Below, piece after piece: positions 1-33,379 of a DNA stretch of 33,559 nucleotides; within the stretch, counting starts at the first letter, position 1; every line of letters begins with the position of its first letter. Under the pieces are notes generated by a model, which was not told the origin of the DNA, searched no databases, and saw nothing but the letters and a program-made list of their open reading frames with translations. The stretch lies in IMG/VR virus record IMGVR_UViG_2711768071_000021; one strand, given 5' to 3'. The DNA is from a virus (taxonomy: Duplodnaviria > Heunggongvirae > Uroviricota > Caudoviricetes). The position numbers and the translations under genes are program-made.

Positions 1-1209
1 TTACAGACTTCTGGACGGTTGCGCAGCTCTTACAACATGTGGTTGATCTTCTGCGGCGTCTTCCAGCGCACTTAAATCACGGTCTTTCACTTCTGGCATT
101 TTCAGCGCAGAGATTAAACCAATCACAGAATATGCCATGATCATAATGGCGATCGGATACCAGGATTCCGTCATGGTGCAGAAAATCCCCGCCAGGATAG
201 GACCAAAACCGGAAGCGATAAGACCACCAATTTCTTTAGAAATAGCCATCCGGGTAAAGCGGTTTTTACAGCCGAACATTTCTGCCATGGTAATGTTTTC
301 CAGAGCAAATAATCCCAGCACCGCACAGTTATGAATCACAATCAGTGCAACCATAATGGTGCTCGGGGCATAGCTTTTATCTACGATGATAGAAAGCATT
401 GGCCACGCCAGCACAATCGCAGAGGTATTCATAATAATATACGGGATCCGGCGACCTATTTTATCGGATAACCAACCAAGGAACGGAATGGTCATAAAGC
501 CGAGAATCGAACTGATCATCAATGCATCTGTTGGAATTGCTTTGTTAAACAATAACGTCTGCACTAAATAGCCTGCAAGAAAAGTCTGAATTAAACCTGA
601 GTTACCAGCCTGACCAAAACGCAGCCCTGTTGCCAGCCAGAAGGATTTGCTCTGGAACATGCTACCAGCAGGTGCAGGTTTTGCTGTCGGTTGGTTGCTG
701 TCGTTAACCTTCTCAAAGACCGGGCTTTCTTTCAGATTCATACGCAACCAGATAGCAAAGACCATCACGACAACGCTCGCCAGGAAAGGTATACGCCATC
801 CCCACGCCAGCAGTTCCTCTTTACTGAGAATGAAGAACATAAAGGCCCAGATTGCCGTTGCGCTCAAGGTTCCGCAGTTAGTCCCCATAGCAACAAATGA
901 GGAGATAATTCCGCGCTTACCTTTTGGCGCATATTCCGCCAGCATCGTACCGGCACCGGAAATTTCCGCACCTGCACCCAACCCCTGAATAATACGCAGC
1001 GTCACCAGCAAGATGGGGGCAAAAACACCAATCTGTGCATAGGTCGGTAACACACCAATTAAGGTGGTACAGATCCCCATCATGGTGATGGTAATAAAGA
1101 GCACTTTTTTACGCCCTATTCTGTCGCCCATTTTGCCGAAAATAAATGCTCCGACAATACGTGCCACATAACCTGCACCATAGGTTCCCATTGCCAGAAT
1201 TAACGCCAT
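1..1209 (-). pseudogene. ydfJ: MFS transporter (metabolite:H+ symporter family), 5'-truncated fragment; ydfJ-like host gene interrupted by the prophage
   Basis: 402-aa ORF with multiple hydrophobic helices and the MFS motif GKMGDRIGRKKV only ~30 residues from the N-terminus, so roughly the first transmembrane helix is missing. An in-frame stop lies 5 codons upstream of the first ATG. Phage genes begin immediately beyond. Confidence 0.75.
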
Positions 1210-1886
1210 TGCCGTTGATGATTCAGGAAAAATATTTCATGAAACACTAACGCTGCGCCGAGCGAATATAACTGGAAATCCATAATTCACAGGTGTTTTT
1301 TCCCATCCTGTGGTTTCCTTGGCGTTTTCTAGGTTTTTTCAGATAGTTGCATTTTTTAAAAAGCATCCTAAGTTCGATCTCAGTGTCTATCTGGGGCCTA
1401 TTTCTGTCCCATATATGCCCCAAAAAAACTCCCCAACAGATAAGTAGTTTTTTCATGGATTTATGCGTAAAATCAAGAACGGCTGGAAATCATTCAATAC
1501 TCACACTATCGAAAAATTTACCAGCCAACCGCAGCACGTTCTTGCATAAGGCGTGTCTGCGGTTTTTCAACTATTCAGATACATCACTCCCATCACATTC
1601 ATTCCTCCGCATCAAAGGCATATAGGCTATATCACCTTGATATTTTTCTTCTTCAGATAAAAACTGTTATCTATGTATACTTTTAAACCCAATCCGTGTA
1701 GAGTCTCTGCATAAGATAGTTTGCAGTTGCCGCTTCAGCTTGCGCCATAAACCGCCTGATTTTTGCTGCCACCTGTTAGCATTCCTGTATACCTGAAACG
1801 ACAATGTTTATCTACGAACTTTAAGAACACCCAAGATAAAAATTGTCAACTATATCATATATAACACATTACTAATTCGAGGCTAT

Positions 1887-3306: not shown

Positions 3307-3882
3307 CTACGGCAGTGCTGGCCATTCAATATCCTGTGCAGTTGACGTATCAACACGGTTCAGCAATACCCGATACTTTTTCCATGCTTCCAGCAACGAG
3401 ATTTCTTCCTCCGTTGCAATTTCCAGATCTGCAGCATCCTGAAGCGGCGCAATATGCTCACTGGCTACCTGCATCAGGTTGTTTTTTGTTTCTTCCGCCT
3501 CCCGGATCCGGAACAGTTTTTCTGCTTCCGTATCCTTCACCCAGGCTGTGCCGTTCCACTTCTGAAACTCCCCTTCCGGGGATAACCAGGTGACATTTTC
3601 CGGTAATGGGCCAAGTTCAGAAATAAATAACGCGTCGCCGGAAGCCACGTCATAGACGGTTTTACCCCGATGATCTTCAACGAGATGCCACGATGCCTCA
3701 TCACTGTTGAAAACAGCCACGAAGCCAGCCGGAATATCTGGCGGTGCAATATAGGAACTGTTTGCTGGCAGACCTGTATGAGGCGGAATATATGCGTCAC
3801 CTTCACCAATAAATTCATTAGTTCCTGCCAGCAGATTATAAATTTTTATGGTCCGTGGTTGTTCACTCATTCTGAATGCCAT
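3307..3882 (-). CDS. tfa: Tail fiber assembly protein Tfa
   Basis: 191 aa beginning [24 protein letters not shown], lambda Tfa-like; start overlaps the stf stop by 1 nt. Confidence 0.9.
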
Positions 3883-28364: not shown

Positions 28365-28623
28365 GGTTCTTTCCACCATCTGAAAAATAATTCTTTAAAA
28401 TACCTGACATGTAATACAGAAAAAACACAAAACCATACCTTAAATAAAAACCTGATTATCAAGCAGATATGCATGGATAAACTACAAGACGAGATATAAA
28501 CCACCCTGTATTTAAATAAACAATAAACAACATCAGAAAAATAATTCTGCTCTATGGTTTAATTCAAAAATATCATTTATACTTTTCAGAACATCACCAG
28601 CAAGGCATAAACAAGGAAAGTAA

Positions 28624-28959
28624 ATGAAGTGGATTGTGATTGATACAGTTATCCAGCCATCATGCGGAATATCTTTTTCAGTCATATGGAGTAAAATAAA
28701 ATTAATAATCTGGTATCAATCGGATGCTTTCTTACCTCCTGAAAGTATATTTACACTGACTCACACAGGCATCATGCTCAATAACAAAGTGCTACCTGTA
28801 ACCATTTACAACGTAGTACCATTCAATAAAACATTCTGGAATTTAATCAAAAACAACCAGGAATGCCCTACAAATACAGATAACGTAATGAATGAATGCT
28901 TTAATAACCGTTGCACTCTGCAAATATGTCCTTATGGACTAAAACAACAAAGTCCATAA
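28624..28959 (+). CDS. Hypothetical protein (111 aa, Cys-containing) in AT-rich cargo region
   Basis: ATG preceded by AAGGAAAG; embedded in a markedly AT-rich stretch; opposite strand to the late operon; followed by a GC-rich hairpin. No family recognised. Confidence 0.55.
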
Positions 28960-28994
28960 GGAGTTTACTCACATCTGACAAAATCAATATAAAC

Positions 28995-29014
28995 AGCCCC
29001 TCCGGAGAGGGGCT
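28995..29014. terminator. GC-rich perfect hairpin (AGCCCCTC-cgga-GAGGGGCT), probable terminator
   Basis: 8-bp perfect stem with a 4-nt loop; a T-rich tract follows on the minus strand (TTTATATTGATTTT); 35 nt downstream of the plus-strand 111-aa gene. Confidence 0.5.
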
Positions 29015-29406
29015 GGAGAGTGGCGCTATGTGCCATTGCATGGTGCCGGGTGCCTCCCGGTGAATTCAGTACCAGCACCTGAATCCGCGATTATCCCATA
29101 TACCTACTCGCTGATTGCCCCTCCGCACAGGGGGATTCACCATGCCAGTTTCTTTTAACAAACTCCCCGCAAACCAGACAACAGTCAACCGCCTGAATTG
29201 TGAAGTATTTAAAAATTTCTCCCGCTAACTGATACCCGGCTAACAGTCTGGCGTTTTCTTTTTCAGCAACGGGAAAGCAACAACCACCACACCCGCCACC
29301 AGCACACCGTCAGCCAGCACTGACATTATCCGGCTGCTGCAATGCCACTCACAAAAACAGTAAGCAATCACTTTTTACCGTAACAAGTGATAATCCAGAT
29401 ATGTAT

Positions 29407-29760
29407 CTACCCCAGATGAGTAATCCGAAGTTCATCCATACCACAGGTACTGGCTATTCTGTTGTACTCCTGAACAAGAGCAAATAATTCTGAATTAGCA
29501 ACCATGAACTCATCGCAAACCCTCTGTATAGCATCACTATTCAGAATAATAACGTCTCTTCCCGAAAGACGATCAGGAGTACAGAACAAAACTGTCAAAC
29601 GGCTGAAGGCCTTTGCTCGTCCTGCATTGACTATATCAATACGCTGCCTAAGGATGAAACACCCCGACGCCTCATCAATATTCACTCTACCCACACCATA
29701 TGAATGATAAATATTTAATGCTGAAAAAACCATTAGACCGTATAACAAACACTCAATCAA
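29407..29760 (-). CDS. Hypothetical protein (117 aa from a TTG, or 108 aa from the first ATG)
   Basis: Track ORF begins with TTG; no convincing SD for either start; AT-rich; downstream of the tRNAs on the late-operon strand. Confidence 0.4.
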   Translation of the reverse strand: MIECLLYGLMVFSALNIYHSYGVGRVNIDEASGCFILRQRIDIVNAGRAKAFSRLTVLFCTPDRLSGRDVIILNSDAIQRVCDEFMVANSELFALVQEYNRIASTCGMDELRITHLG

Positions 29761-29873
29761 TACTTAACAGAACTTTTATTTTTGACAAACATAAAATATT
29801 TTCAACAATATCCTGAGCCAGGTATATTTCAGTATAAGGCTCTGCCGGAAGGAATCTGGAAGAATGAATATAG

Positions 29874-29947
29874 CGCGCTGTACTGGATTCGAACCAGTGA
29901 CCGATTGCTTAGAAGGCAATTGCTCTGTCCGGCTGAGCTAACAACGC
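29874..29947 (-). tRNA. tRNA-Arg (anticodon UCU, reads AGA); CCA not encoded
   Basis: Cloverleaf built by hand: acceptor GCGTTGT/ACAGCGC (one G-U pair), D-stem GCTC/GAGC, anticodon stem ATTGC/GCAAT with loop CTTCTAA, T-arm ACTGG-TTCGAAT-CCAGT. Confidence 0.8.
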
Positions 29948-30047: not shown

Positions 30048-30123
30048 TGGTGGCCCTTGCTGGATTTGAACCAGCGACCTGGCGATTATGAGTCGCTCGC
30101 TCTCACCACTGAGCTAAAGGGCC
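30048..30123 (-). tRNA. tRNA-Ile2 type (anticodon CAU, ileX/ileZ-like; would read AUA if lysidine-modified, otherwise Met)
   Basis: 76 nt: GGCCCTTTAGCTCAGTGGTGAGAGCGAGCGACTCATAATCGCCAGGTCGCTGGTTCAAATCCAGCAAGGGCCACCA; perfect 7-bp acceptor stem, encoded CCA, close to my memory of E. coli ileX. Confidence 0.85.
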
Positions 30124-30266: not shown

Positions 30267-31088
30267 TTACCTAGTTACCTTTTTTAACTGCCGCTCAGCC
30301 CATGCTTCTTCAATATCAAACCGGGTCACCAGCGCATCATAGAATTTCTTAACTGTTTTTTCCCATGACGCGCGTGTTATCTGGTTTGTCACCTCGCATA
30401 TAGCATTAAATGCCTCCGTTGATGGTAGTCTTTCATAGCCACGACCACCACAACGCTGGCAGTCTCTGATAACAGGCATACCACGTTTTACCGACTCTTC
30501 ACGATGAATGGCGACACCACGCCCACGGCAATCCTTACAGGCAGTGGAAACCTCACCCTTTCCGCCACACTCCGGACAGGCAACTTTTACCACCTCCCTG
30601 ACTTTTTTCCATTCTTCCCAGTAAGACGAATACACACCTTTCGTACACTTTGCCCATACCGGCGGCTTACCATCCGGATACTGGACCTTGTTTGTAAAAA
30701 CTACGCTTTCAATAAATTTTTCCCCATAGCAACAAGGGCACTGCTTTTTACTCGCTGCGCTACGGGCATAATCCTCAAAAGCGTACGAAGCCATAATGCG
30801 CATCACTACCGGTTTTATTTCTGCCGGAAGTTTTCTCAACGCCGCCACACGATCGCACCGACTGAGTGCATAATCTGCCAGTAATTCTGTTGCCCGCGCC
30901 CTGTCATTCATACTGATGCCCATTTTCCCCAGGAACGCAGAAAAACCCATCTCAGCCCGATTCTGTGTCATGCCCTGCGCGGCCATCACATCAGTGATAC
31001 TCAGCGCATCTTTTGACGTTGAGGCCGATGCATCGGTCAGGCCAGGGGATTTTGGGGAGTAGTATTTCGGTAAATCTTCCAGTTTCAT
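30267..31088 (-). CDS. Q: Late-gene antiterminator Q
   Basis: 273 aa with several Cys-x2-Cys pairs (zinc-binding); located immediately upstream of the PR'-like promoter, tR'-like terminator and tRNAs. Confidence 0.85.
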   Translation of the reverse strand: MKLEDLPKYYSPKSPGLTDASASTSKDALSITDVMAAQGMTQNRAEMGFSAFLGKMGISMNDRARATELLADYALSRCDRVAALRKLPAEIKPVVMRIMASYAFEDYARSAASKKQCPCCYGEKFIESVVFTNKVQYPDGKPPVWAKCTKGVYSSYWEEWKKVREVVKVACPECGGKGEVSTACKDCRGRGVAIHREESVKRGMPVIRDCQRCGGRGYERLPSTEAFNAICEVTNQITRASWEKTVKKFYDALVTRFDIEEAWAERQLKKVTR

Positions 31089-32965: not shown

Positions 32966-33121
32966 TTACTCCTCAGGTTCGTAAGCTGTGAAGACAGCGA
33001 CCTCCGTCTGGCCGGTTCGGATTCGTACCTCGCAGAGGTCTTTCCTCGTTACCAGTGCCGTCACTATGACGGTTAAACAGATGACGATCAGGGCGATTAA
33101 CATCGCCTTTTGCTGCTTCAT
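32966..33121 (-). CDS. hokD: Hok-family type I toxin (HokD/RelF-like)
   Basis: Hand translation MKQQKAMLIALIVICLTVIVTALVTRKDLCEVRIRTGQTEVAVFTAYEPEE (51 aa), matching my memory of HokD; below the ORF-track cutoff. Confidence 0.85.
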   Translation of the reverse strand: MKQQKAMLIALIVICLTVIVTALVTRKDLCEVRIRTGQTEVAVFTAYEPEE

Positions 33122-33177
33122 AGCCTGCTTCTCCTTGACCTTTCGGTCCGTAAGAGGCTAATCTCTATGTGTCGCAT
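33118..33177 (-). CDS. Short leader ORF translationally coupled to hok (mok-like)
   Basis: 19 codons (MRHIEISLLRTERSRRSRL); GAGG 6 nt upstream; its TGA overlaps the hok ATG (ATGA). Confidence 0.4.
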   Translation of the reverse strand: MRHIEISLLRTERSRRSRL

Positions 33178-33379
33178 AGATATGGCCTCAGATTAATGTT
33201 AAGCGTCTTGCAGGACGCGTAATGTTAACTGGGGCTTTTCTCTATCTGCCTTTTGGTGTTCATGCCTGAGACAGATAGCCTCAAGCACCCGCAGTCATTC
33301 TACTTAACTAAGATTTCCCCGCAAACCGTTTTTGTCCGGCACAGTAAATATCCAACTAAACCAATGGCGTTCGCTGTAT

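Follow-up and report, generated by a model that had tools for sequence, protein, structure and literature searches.

The DNA analysed here (hereafter the window) is a stretch of 33,559 nucleotides from a virus of the Caudoviricetes, IMG/VR record IMGVR_UViG_2711768071_000021, and this text deals with its positions 28960-29406. The initial annotation had described this interval as about 450 bp devoid of a sizeable open reading frame (ORF), with several GC-rich hairpins and two 28-codon ORFs, and had considered a small RNA or a small-protein locus as plausible. Both kinds of element are present: a curated Rfam small RNA (sRNA), identical to EcOnc05 of enterohemorrhagic Escherichia coli (EHEC), and an ORF that matches the Pfam family DUF3927. 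It is true that the interval contains no ORF of at least 60 aa, but it is not non-coding, as it is filled by the known sRNA (about 215 bp) and by an annotated small coding sequence (CDS, about 132 bp), with little left over. The locus, STnc100/EcOnc05 plus DUF3927, is already known. The best explanation, in which we place high confidence, is that two small minus-strand genes, an STnc100/EcOnc05 sRNA gene and a DUF3927 peptide ORF, lie in the late operon of a lambdoid prophage. The features of the interval, including those assigned by the NCBI Prokaryotic Genome Annotation Pipeline (PGAP), are the following:

28985..29205, minus strand: whole sRNA gene of the STnc100/EcOnc05 type, about 215-220 nt, with the 3' end given by the terminator and a probable 5' end
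29207..29212, minus strand: candidate -10 hexamer TTAAAT, with a weak -35
29146..29205, minus strand: 5' leader (CACAAUUCAGGCGGUUGACUGUUGUCUGG...UUGUUAAAAGAAACUG), conserved in lambdoid-type copies, with a predicted hairpin
29038..29145, minus strand: conserved structured core of 108 nt, from the minimum free energy (MFE) fold and the comparison of homologues
29016..29037, minus strand: variable 3' tail (AAUGGCACAUAGCGCCACUCUC) with a small hairpin, between core and terminator
28985..29015, minus strand: Rho-independent terminator (CAGCCCCUCUCCGGAGGGGCUG then UUUAUAUUG), hairpin at 28994-29015 and U-rich end to about 28985
29240..29371, minus strand: 43-aa ORF for a DUF3927/TciB-like small membrane peptide, GTG start at 29371 and internal ATG at 29326
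29142..29228 including the stop, plus strand: 28-codon ORF (MPVSFNK...), a by-product of the minus-strand RNA and not a gene
29030..29158, plus strand: 42-codon ORF antisense to the sRNA core, where PGAP has a partial 'hypothetical protein' pseudogene (29030-29155)

The assignment of the sRNA is based in the first place on Rfam, which matched STnc100 (RF02076) at 28985-29174 of the minus strand with 132.4 bits against a gathering score of 47 (E = 1.5e-30). The match spans the full model (positions 1-206 of 206), and Rfam returned nothing besides STnc100 in 28500-29900, even at E <= 1. In addition, the minus strand from 29203 (TCACAATTCAGG...) to 28996 (...GGAGGGGCT) is 100% identical to the EcOnc05 locus of prophage Sp4 of E. 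coli O157 Sakai, which itself scores 138 bits with the STnc100 model, and the Northern probe used for EcOnc05 (Tree et al. 2014) has an exact match at 29082-29116. Transcription, size and Hfq binding are taken from the literature on identical or related copies. For EcOnc05, Tree et al. (2014, Table S2; PMC4104026) reported a peak of Hfq cross-linking and analysis of cDNA (Hfq-CRAC) and, on Northern blots, a band of about 222 nt. Strain EDL933 transcribes 11 STnc100 copies, one of them confirmed by Northern (PMC5331693); the copy located after stx2B is EcOnc27/sRNA103 (PMC12711010, PMC7873438), and an STnc100-type copy has been detected in outer membrane vesicles (PMC12370729), in a study whose primers match the window sequence too. 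PasD1 and PasD2 are associated with Hfq, verified by Northern and have targets in RIL-seq (ligation and sequencing of interacting RNAs; PMC8550237), and a 2026 preprint (Zhu, Shabalina and Storz) relates these sRNAs of enteropathogenic E. coli (EPEC) to STnc100 and proposes a common ancestry. The RNAs of related copies are abundant in uninduced cultures (PMC5331693 and the PasD data). Few sRNAs are annotated in bacterial genomes as often as STnc100, which has no assigned function (PMC9029176).

The consensus helices of the family are present in the window copy, as judged from the Rfam structure line and the MFE fold: the closing helix GCAUGGUG/CACCAUGC, the CCCCU/AGGGG hairpin, the hairpin before CCGGGAGGCACCCGG, and the terminator. 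The stems noticed initially do exist, that is, an 8-bp GC hairpin at 28995-29014, which extends to 9 bp (28994-29015), and the stems CCGGGTGCCTCCCGG at 29046-29060 and CCCCTCCGCACAGGGGG at 29118-29134. They are not several separate hairpins, however, since all of them are the terminator, H5 and H2 of one minus-strand RNA. Chance does not account for them: they coincide with helices of RF02076, and diverged homologues preserve them through compensatory changes. The core forms a closed junction of several helices, with an 8-bp closing helix, four hairpins and one pseudoknot, all of it on the minus strand, and the MFE fold reproduces the Rfam STnc100 structure:

29145-29138 with 29045-29038, minus strand: closing helix H1, 8 bp
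29133-29118, minus strand: H2, CCCCU/AGGGG
29115-29109, minus strand: 5' strand of the pseudoknot, AUCAGCG
Next in order, minus strand: H3, variable
29086-29079 with 29069-29062, minus strand: H4
29077-29071, minus strand: 3' strand of the pseudoknot, UGCUGGU, in the loop of H4
29060-29046, minus strand: H5, CCGGG-AGGCA-CCCGG (CCGGGAGGCACCCGG)

To obtain homologues, a collection of viral contigs was scanned for GCATGGTGAATCCCC and ACCGGGAGGCACCCGGCA, which gave 125 unique cores; 121 of these passed a filter on H1 and the junction, and 51 representatives with less than 90% identity were used for covariation. Rfam calls most diverged cores STnc100, with 52-88 bits. A scan of genome contigs with the 15-mer GCATGGTGAATCCCC returned nearly only chance matches in unrelated phyla, and the useful homologues came from the viral collection. 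Many phage contigs beyond the reach of a BLAST comparison with the window have the same fold. Counting pairs by columns in a MAFFT alignment worked for H1, H2 and H5. Among the 51 representatives H1 is paired in 92.4% of cases, with changes on both sides at six of its eight pairs, and its compensated variants include GCAUGGUG/CACCAUGC, GCAUGAUG/CAUCAUGC, UUGUGGUG/CACCACAA, CUACGGUG/CACCGUAG and AUGCAGUG/CACUGCAU; H2 is paired in 82%. H5 is invariant because it served as the search key. Besides the helices, the loops and junctions GUGAAU, the GCGG loop of H2 and CCGGGAGGCACCCGG are near-invariant.

With H4 (51% of cells paired) and the pseudoknot (40%) column counting failed, as the lengths of loops and stems differ between copies, and for these two elements we used instead a detection sequence by sequence, together with a permutation test of cognate against non-cognate combinations. 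H4 appeared as hairpins of unrelated sequence at a fixed position adjoining H5. In nearly every copy 6-9 nt after H2 are complementary to the loop of H4, and this is achieved with many different sequences: AUCAGC/GCUGAU, CUGGUG/CACCAG, AAUGAC/GUCAUU, AAGGUUG/CAACCUU, ACUGGAUA/UAUCCAGU and AGACUGACAAA/UUUGUCAGUCU. The mean longest complement between linker and loop was 6.27 nt for cognate pairs against 4.40 +/- 0.15 nt after permutation, and none of 5000 permutations reached the observed value. Furthermore, at least 6 bp were found in 35 of 49 cognate linker-loop pairs, with 21 distinct 6-mers, against 19.7% of the non-cognate ones. As far as sequence comparison can show it, the STnc100 core therefore holds a covarying pseudoknot between the H2-H4 linker and the loop of H4. 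This pairing is absent from the Rfam structure line printed by cmscan, and the 2026 preprint on STnc100/PasD uses none of the words pseudoknot, kissing and tertiary; the conserved covarying pseudoknot is what the present analysis adds to what was known of this family. A likeness of the core to a tRNA (a closing helix, a 4-bp arm and a 5-bp arm abutting the 3' strand) was also considered and set aside; ARAGORN calls nothing there.

With respect to the ends of the RNA, the terminator is the better defined. A terminator scan found 9 pairs, seven G-C among them, and a T-rich tail confined to the minus strand, and this element aligns with the terminal hairpin of the Rfam STnc100 model; in all, the scan returned 3 terminator-like sites in 1.4 kb against 0.9 expected. 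At the other end, homology among otherwise unrelated contexts, including that of Sakai Sp4, begins at TTTTTAAAT, and the leader is kept across otherwise unrelated upstream contexts. From the Northern size of EcOnc05 we infer a 5' end near 29200-29207; a start about 7 nt downstream of TTAAAT would give an RNA of about 215 nt, close to that size. The Northern probe of EcOnc13 sits in the equivalent leader, which indicates that the leader is transcribed in EcOnc13. A start at H1 from the extended -10 TGTTAAAAG (29160-29152) was dropped as the main start in view of the EcOnc05 band and of this EcOnc13 probe. The H1-start model fits PasD1 and the stand-alone copies: the 5' end of PasD1 in RNA-seq (NC_011601, position 1060260) is exactly the first G of H1, and many stand-alone relatives have TTGACA-17/18-TAAATT promoters that likewise start at H1. 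A second, shorter form of the RNA starting at 29145 is possible.

The tail between core and terminator is one of the modules that are swapped between copies. For PasD1 and PasD2, the RIL-seq chimeras and the predicted seed UGUGAG are located in this same place, between core and terminator (PMC8550237). By analogy, positions 29016-29037 would be the best candidate for the target-pairing (seed) region of the window sRNA, and the conserved leader a second candidate.

The plus-strand ORF of 28 codons is also present at 29142-29228, as the initial annotation had it, with GGGGGA upstream, and it does not behave as a gene. Its ATG (29142-29144) arises as the complement of a CAT within H1, and the GGGGGA as that of H2. 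When read from this ATG in 47 unique lambdoid-type variants, the ORF has anything from 2 to more than 41 codons and encodes unrelated peptides, that is, its length is not conserved. Neither the 28-codon (29142-29228) nor the 42-codon plus-strand ORF had a Pfam match, and the 42-codon ORF with its PGAP pseudogene is probably an annotation artefact. In public records, CDSs or pseudogenes are annotated over the sRNA on either strand, at 1394-1717 (plus) in record L003 and at 1076-1288 (plus) and 1466-1699 (minus) in L002, the record of phage vB_EcoS-813R8; another example of an ORF call over the sRNA is ORF b70 of an Stx1 phage. Protein annotations over the sRNA look like a recurrent artefact of an RNA that was left unmodelled.

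The second gene of the interval was initially seen as a hydrophobic 28-codon ORF of the minus strand. This peptide (MSVLADG...TPDC, from the ATG at 29326) is indeed encoded, as the C-terminal part of the 43-aa TciB-like ORF that PGAP annotates. The ORF matches Pfam PF13064 with 95.6 bits against a cutoff of 25 (E = 1.7e-27) and PHROG 1470 'TciB-like' with E = 7.8e-13, the latter over residues 12-40 only, and in strain EC958 PGAP has a 'DUF3927 family protein' (WP_000562553.1) at the same position. Full-length relatives have about 52 aa and two hydrophobic segments, for example the 52-aa protein encoded directly upstream of PasD1. The window copy carries IAYCFCEWHCS in place of the first hydrophobic segment and lacks this two-segment architecture; it has a single predicted membrane helix and a single hydropathy peak, at residues 18-36, besides a KKK tail. 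From its sequence, the copy looks N-terminally degenerate, with the first of two membrane helices lost. The 24 C-terminal codons shared among copies evolve as coding sequence, with proportions of nonsynonymous (pN) and synonymous (pS) differences of 0.20 and 0.52 in 110 pairs, and a few copies are frameshifted. Upon direct reading, neither the GTG at 29371 nor the ATG at 29326 has a convincing ribosome-binding site; the peptide product is putative. Directly upstream of the RNA, 18 of 46 unique lambdoid-type copies have a DUF3927 ORF, against none of 75 other copies; this patchy presence indicates that it is one of several alternative cargo genes and not an obligate partner of the sRNA. TciB owes its name to phage P1; there the gene is non-essential, and its function was guessed from its TerB-like neighbour TciA. 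In the literature on tciB/DUF3927 we found the name-level annotation from phage P1 and no functional test.

The window corresponds here to the late region of a lambdoid prophage in reverse reading, and on the minus strand the genes around the locus follow this order:

Start of the order, minus strand: DUF968 gene, then rusA
30267-31088, minus strand: Q-like antiterminator, 273 aa (phrog_127)
30048-30123, minus strand: tRNA(CAT), called Met by ARAGORN and tRNA-Ile (ileZ) by PGAP and by the Sakai annotation of the equivalent gene
29873-29947, minus strand: tRNA-Arg(TCT)
29407..29733, minus strand: conserved phage ORF, phrog_2873, 108 aa, upstream of the DUF3927 ORF
28624..28959, plus strand: iraM-like anti-adapter gene, convergent with the sRNA (NCBIfam NF007393, 162 bits against a cutoff of 121)
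Beyond the iraM-like gene in minus-strand order: holin, endolysin and Rz genes

The sRNA locus is thus located between Q, with its tRNA genes, and the lysis cassette, and the minus strand is the sense strand of the late operon. The free space had seemed unusual for a phage genome; it is a known site downstream of Q, since the "moron" insertion site downstream of the Q-dependent PR' promoter is a conserved home of sRNAs in at least eight Sakai prophages (PMC4104026). As for distribution, the 561 bp surrounding 28960-29406 are 100% identical in many chromosomes from E. coli strains of the extraintestinal pathogenic group (ExPEC), including the sequence type 131 (ST131) strain EC958. Of 5426 complete E. 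coli genomes, 2859 have matches, and a single genome can hold them in as many as 12 places. The window copy shares with STnc100 its location in a prophage, its multicopy occurrence and its place in the Q-to-lysis interval. PGAP has three features under the 28960-29406 region in EC958, namely IraM, the partial plus-strand pseudogene and the minus-strand DUF3927 family protein.

Some of these neighbours deserve a comment. The tRNA(CAT) is presumably read as Ile following lysidine modification. The ORF at 29407-29733 matches phrog_2873 (E = 6.6e-70; residues 10-117 of a 117-aa ORF), the PGAP annotation of EC958 has no CDS at this place, and a gene lying between the tRNA genes and the DUF3927 ORF has probably been missed. 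The equivalent of 28624-28959 in EC958 is labelled "anti-adapter protein IraM" by PGAP. This iraM-like gene occupies the site where EHEC prophages such as Sakai Sp4 and VT2-Sakai place a convergent anti-sRNA. An iraM gene is annotated in phage vB_EcoS-813R8 too, and in one Stx2a phage record the match falls on an iraM annotation. No T-run follows the hairpin at 28994-29015 on the plus strand, and iraM is left without an obvious intrinsic terminator of its own. Elsewhere in the window, Rfam matched a sok antitoxin RNA at 33119-33290 (minus strand, 106.7 bits), which denotes a real type I locus of the hok/sok kind, and an IS009 RNA at 3341-3539 (minus strand, 220.9 bits).

The closest known system is EcOnc05 of Sakai Sp4, which has the same sequence from leader to terminator, the same strand with respect to the Q and lysis genes, and the same moron site. 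The contexts differ: upstream there is the tRNA gene argO and a terminator in Sakai Sp4 and the DUF3927 ORF in the window; the sequence beyond the terminator is different, with the convergent sRNA EcOnc08 in Sakai Sp4 and the convergent iraM-like gene in the window; and the host is an EHEC in the first case and an ExPEC chromosome of the ST131 type in the second. PasD1 and PasD2 of EPEC E2348/69 (Pearl Mizrahi et al. 2021) show the same order of Q, cargo, DUF3927 ORF, sRNA and holin. Their H1, H2 and H4 are homologous to those of the window RNA, they have a terminator, and they are Hfq-associated; however, their score of 37.7 bits stays under the gathering score, H5 is degenerate, as is the 3' half of H1, the leader of about 60 nt is missing, and the tail, with its UGUGAG seed, is a different one. 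EcOnc27/sRNA103, found after stx2B in Stx2 phages, belongs to the same Rfam family (207.7 bits in VT2-Sakai), lies in sense orientation after a moron gene and binds Hfq as well; its identity with the window RNA is about 71%, and H3, tail and terminator differ. EcOnc27 has a convergent anti-sRNA partner, AsxR, in VT2-Sakai; the window lacks AsxR.

Convergent dyads of an sRNA and an anti-sRNA (AgvB/AsxR) are known at the PR' moron site, the anti-sRNA gene of 50-60 nt being on the other strand and adjoining the terminator, and the window sRNA corresponds to their sense member. No match to RF02702 or RF02703 (AgvB/AsxR) was found at E <= 1 in 28500-29900, and iraM stands in the place of the partner. 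The small terminated RNAs lambda 6S and StxS (PR'-tR' leaders) likewise lie between Q and the lysis genes and are read through by the Q-modified polymerase, but the window sRNA is not a PR' transcript; tRNA genes and two ORFs separate it from Q. As in the window, the P1 TciB/DUF3927/PHROG 1470 peptide is small and hydrophobic with a basic C-terminus, and its gene has phage tRNA genes as neighbours; the window copy aligns to the PHROG profile over the C-terminal membrane helix only, the first helix being missing. The type I toxins Hok, Ldr, TisB, Ibs and ShoB are alike in peptide size and composition, and differ in that the window peptide has no cognate antisense RNA, family match or complementarity.

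When the copies are compared, leaders, H3, tails and terminators appear swapped like cassettes around a constant core. EcOnc04, EcOnc05, EcOnc06, EcOnc13 and EcOnc27 are such combinations of modules, as seen from the probe sequences of Tree et al. (PMC4104026). In four divergent phage loci the RNA genes lie in sense orientation between a Q-like antiterminator and holin/endolysin genes. The idea that the sRNA could be the PR' late leader, that is, an equivalent of lambda 6S RNA or StxS, was rejected, as the phage locus L251 has a separate promoter and terminator beside Q; its STnc100-type genes are about 500 nt beyond this Q-adjacent pair and have promoters of their own.

Other observations concern the arrangement of the copies. 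Some metagenomic phages have three to five STnc100-type genes in tandem, about 253 nt apart (L260, 342-1038; L270, 1812-2335; L295, 4349-5513), each with its own promoter-like sequence and terminator, in an array between Q and the holin gene; in L295 an isrI-like RNA is found among the copies. Phage vB_EcoS-813R8 (L002) carries two serial STnc100 copies, at 1031-1219 and 1495-1688, between a tciB-annotated ORF and iraM, and the window looks like this arrangement with one copy deleted or recombined away. A subfamily whose H2 is GUGAAUGCGGCU...CGCGG (L248, L250, L263, L292, L323 and others) keeps H1, H5 and the pseudoknot. Its loci in L250, L263 and L323 have no Rfam match at the gathering score. 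As judged by N-terminal sequences, those of L248 and L263 lie beside ORFs resembling helix-turn-helix repressors and not at the Q-to-lysis site, and an integrase-like ORF adjoins the copy in L248 and L250. The closing helix has 16 bp in L263, L266, L292 and L323, and in L263, L266 and L292 an ATG with a Shine-Dalgarno-like GAGGG/AAGGAG follows the RNA with no obvious terminator between them, which suggests that these three copies of the subfamily could be cis-acting leaders.

The family also touches on a clinical observation. Paganini et al. (2025) described two changes downstream of stx2B that are predictive of hemolytic uremic syndrome (HUS), a T/C at +90 and a T deletion at +103. These appear to correspond to differences between the Stx2a and Stx2c copies in ...CAUUUGUUAAAAAAAUUUC, just 5' of H1, when positions 1650-1680 of VT2-Sakai (L006) are compared with the Stx2c phage L005 (alignment columns 107-125). 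Their location 5' of H1 places them in the leader or in a possible internal promoter, and not in the folded core.

Sequence analysis shows the family membership of the RNA, its identity to EcOnc05, its terminator and its genomic position, and covariation shows the helices and the pseudoknot. Under the explanation that we favour, in a lysogen the RNA would be made from its own weak promoter, or in part by read-through from upstream, running leftward from about 29200-29205 and ending at the terminator at 29015-28994. Hfq would bind through the U-tail of the terminator and A/U-rich stretches. The sRNA would then act in trans by base pairing, and exchangeable single-stranded arms, i.e. the 3' tail and possibly the 5' leader, would give the specificity for its presumed targets; the constant pseudoknotted core would be a stabilising or recognition scaffold. 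Furthermore, the terminator of the sRNA would help to insulate the lysis genes, and the Q-modified RNA polymerase would read through it in lytic growth.

Several points weigh against this explanation. The evidence of expression comes from copies in other strains and prophages; there is no validated target of EcOnc05/STnc100, and the effects of sRNA103 (EcOnc27) on fimZ and espA were reported without a shown mechanism. Judged by the consensus, the promoter with TTAAAT is weak, and it went uncalled in the consensus promoter scan. Compared with shuffled sequences, the folding of the whole RNA is modest (z = -2.06). The DUF3927 copy may be a remnant, given its poor translation signals and its missing first helix. 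Finally, the high conservation of the core loops and of the pseudoknot is unusual for a plain base-pairing sRNA, and the RNA may have another activity.

This last point leads to the alternative that survives best, although we regard it as rather unlikely: that function resides in the core, as a folded RNA binding a specific protein or ligand or acting by its shape (as a decoy, a sponge, or a polymerase- or nuclease-binding RNA), with pairing by the arms being secondary or absent. The closed junction, the covarying pseudoknot and the near-invariant loops are kept across lineages with wholly different leaders, tails and H3; many copies have their own near-consensus promoter starting at H1, some occur in the tandem arrays of three to five copies, and STnc100 has no established function or target. 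Related copies, however, are bound by Hfq and form RIL-seq chimeras with mRNAs through the 3' tail, which speaks for pairing. In addition, there is no consistently adjoining partner protein, as the distribution of the DUF3927 ORF given above illustrates, and Rfam gives no likeness to a riboswitch or ribozyme family.

It is also conceivable, though improbable, that the element acts in cis, as the structured 3' untranslated region and terminator of the upstream moron mRNA (DUF3927 here, stxB in Stx phages), the sRNA being a processing by-product. The RNA always lies in sense directly after a cargo gene, at 94 nt here (from the DUF3927 stop codon to H1), at 33 nt in copies of the PasD type and at 75 nt after stx2B; in the PasD type there is hardly space for a promoter of its own, and the promoter in the window is weak. 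Against this, the identical RNA of Sakai Sp4 follows a tRNA gene and a terminator, its homology starts at the candidate -10 and it gives a discrete band of about 222 nt. The stand-alone copies with TTGACA-17/18-TAAATT promoters and the abundance of the RNAs in uninduced cultures also argue for a gene of its own.

The initial annotation had likened the peptide to type I toxins. A toxin-antitoxin pair of this type, with the hydrophobic, lysine-tailed peptide as the membrane toxin and a small local antisense RNA repressing its translation, is in our view very improbable. One strongly hydrophobic segment with a KKK tail is a composition typical of type I toxins, the sRNA gene adjoins the peptide ORF, the PHROG label mentions inhibition of cell division (by name only), and a real locus of the hok/sok type exists elsewhere in the window. 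But the sRNA is on the same strand and downstream, not antisense; the duplex energy between it and the DUF3927 mRNA is no better than that of shuffled sequences (157 of 300 reach the observed value); and neither an antisense promoter-like site nor an antitoxin RNA family was detected at 29240-29400 by the promoter scan and Rfam. Moreover, most copies of the sRNA have no DUF3927 ORF, and P1 tciB is non-essential and owes its name to the homology of its neighbours and not to a test. The weakest reading, a decayed remnant of a larger protein gene (that of the PGAP plus-strand pseudogene or a longer DUF3927 gene) with chance hairpins, could invoke the partial pseudogene at 29030-29155, the phage records with ORFs over the same sequence and the degenerate N-terminus of DUF3927, and is hardly credible: sequence changes track the RNA helices and not codons, with both partners of a pair changing, the antisense ORFs have no conserved length, the match to the RNA covariance model is full-length and high-scoring, an identical copy is expressed as RNA, and no Pfam family matches the plus-strand translation.

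The two-gene explanation removes a false lead, as the "non-coding gap" is a catalogued prophage sRNA gene next to a catalogued small ORF, and the plus-strand ORF and, probably, the PGAP pseudogene are artefacts of the unannotated RNA. It also means that a prophage of an ExPEC of the ST131 type carries an exact copy of an Hfq-bound sRNA of EHEC, paired here with a prophage iraM. At the level of the family, one folded core with different arms unites sRNAs that were named separately, i.e. EcOnc04, EcOnc05, EcOnc06, EcOnc13, EcOnc27, sRNA103, PasD and STnc100, and a structural model with the pseudoknot and correct 5' ends would help in the design of mutants and in the search for targets. We propose tentatively, and as a possibility to which we give less than even credence, that the 108-nt core is a pseudoknotted five-helix fold kept across enterobacterial phages, working either as a modular system of scaffold and exchangeable seed or as an RNA that acts by shape; if this were true, the real function of the family would have been missed.

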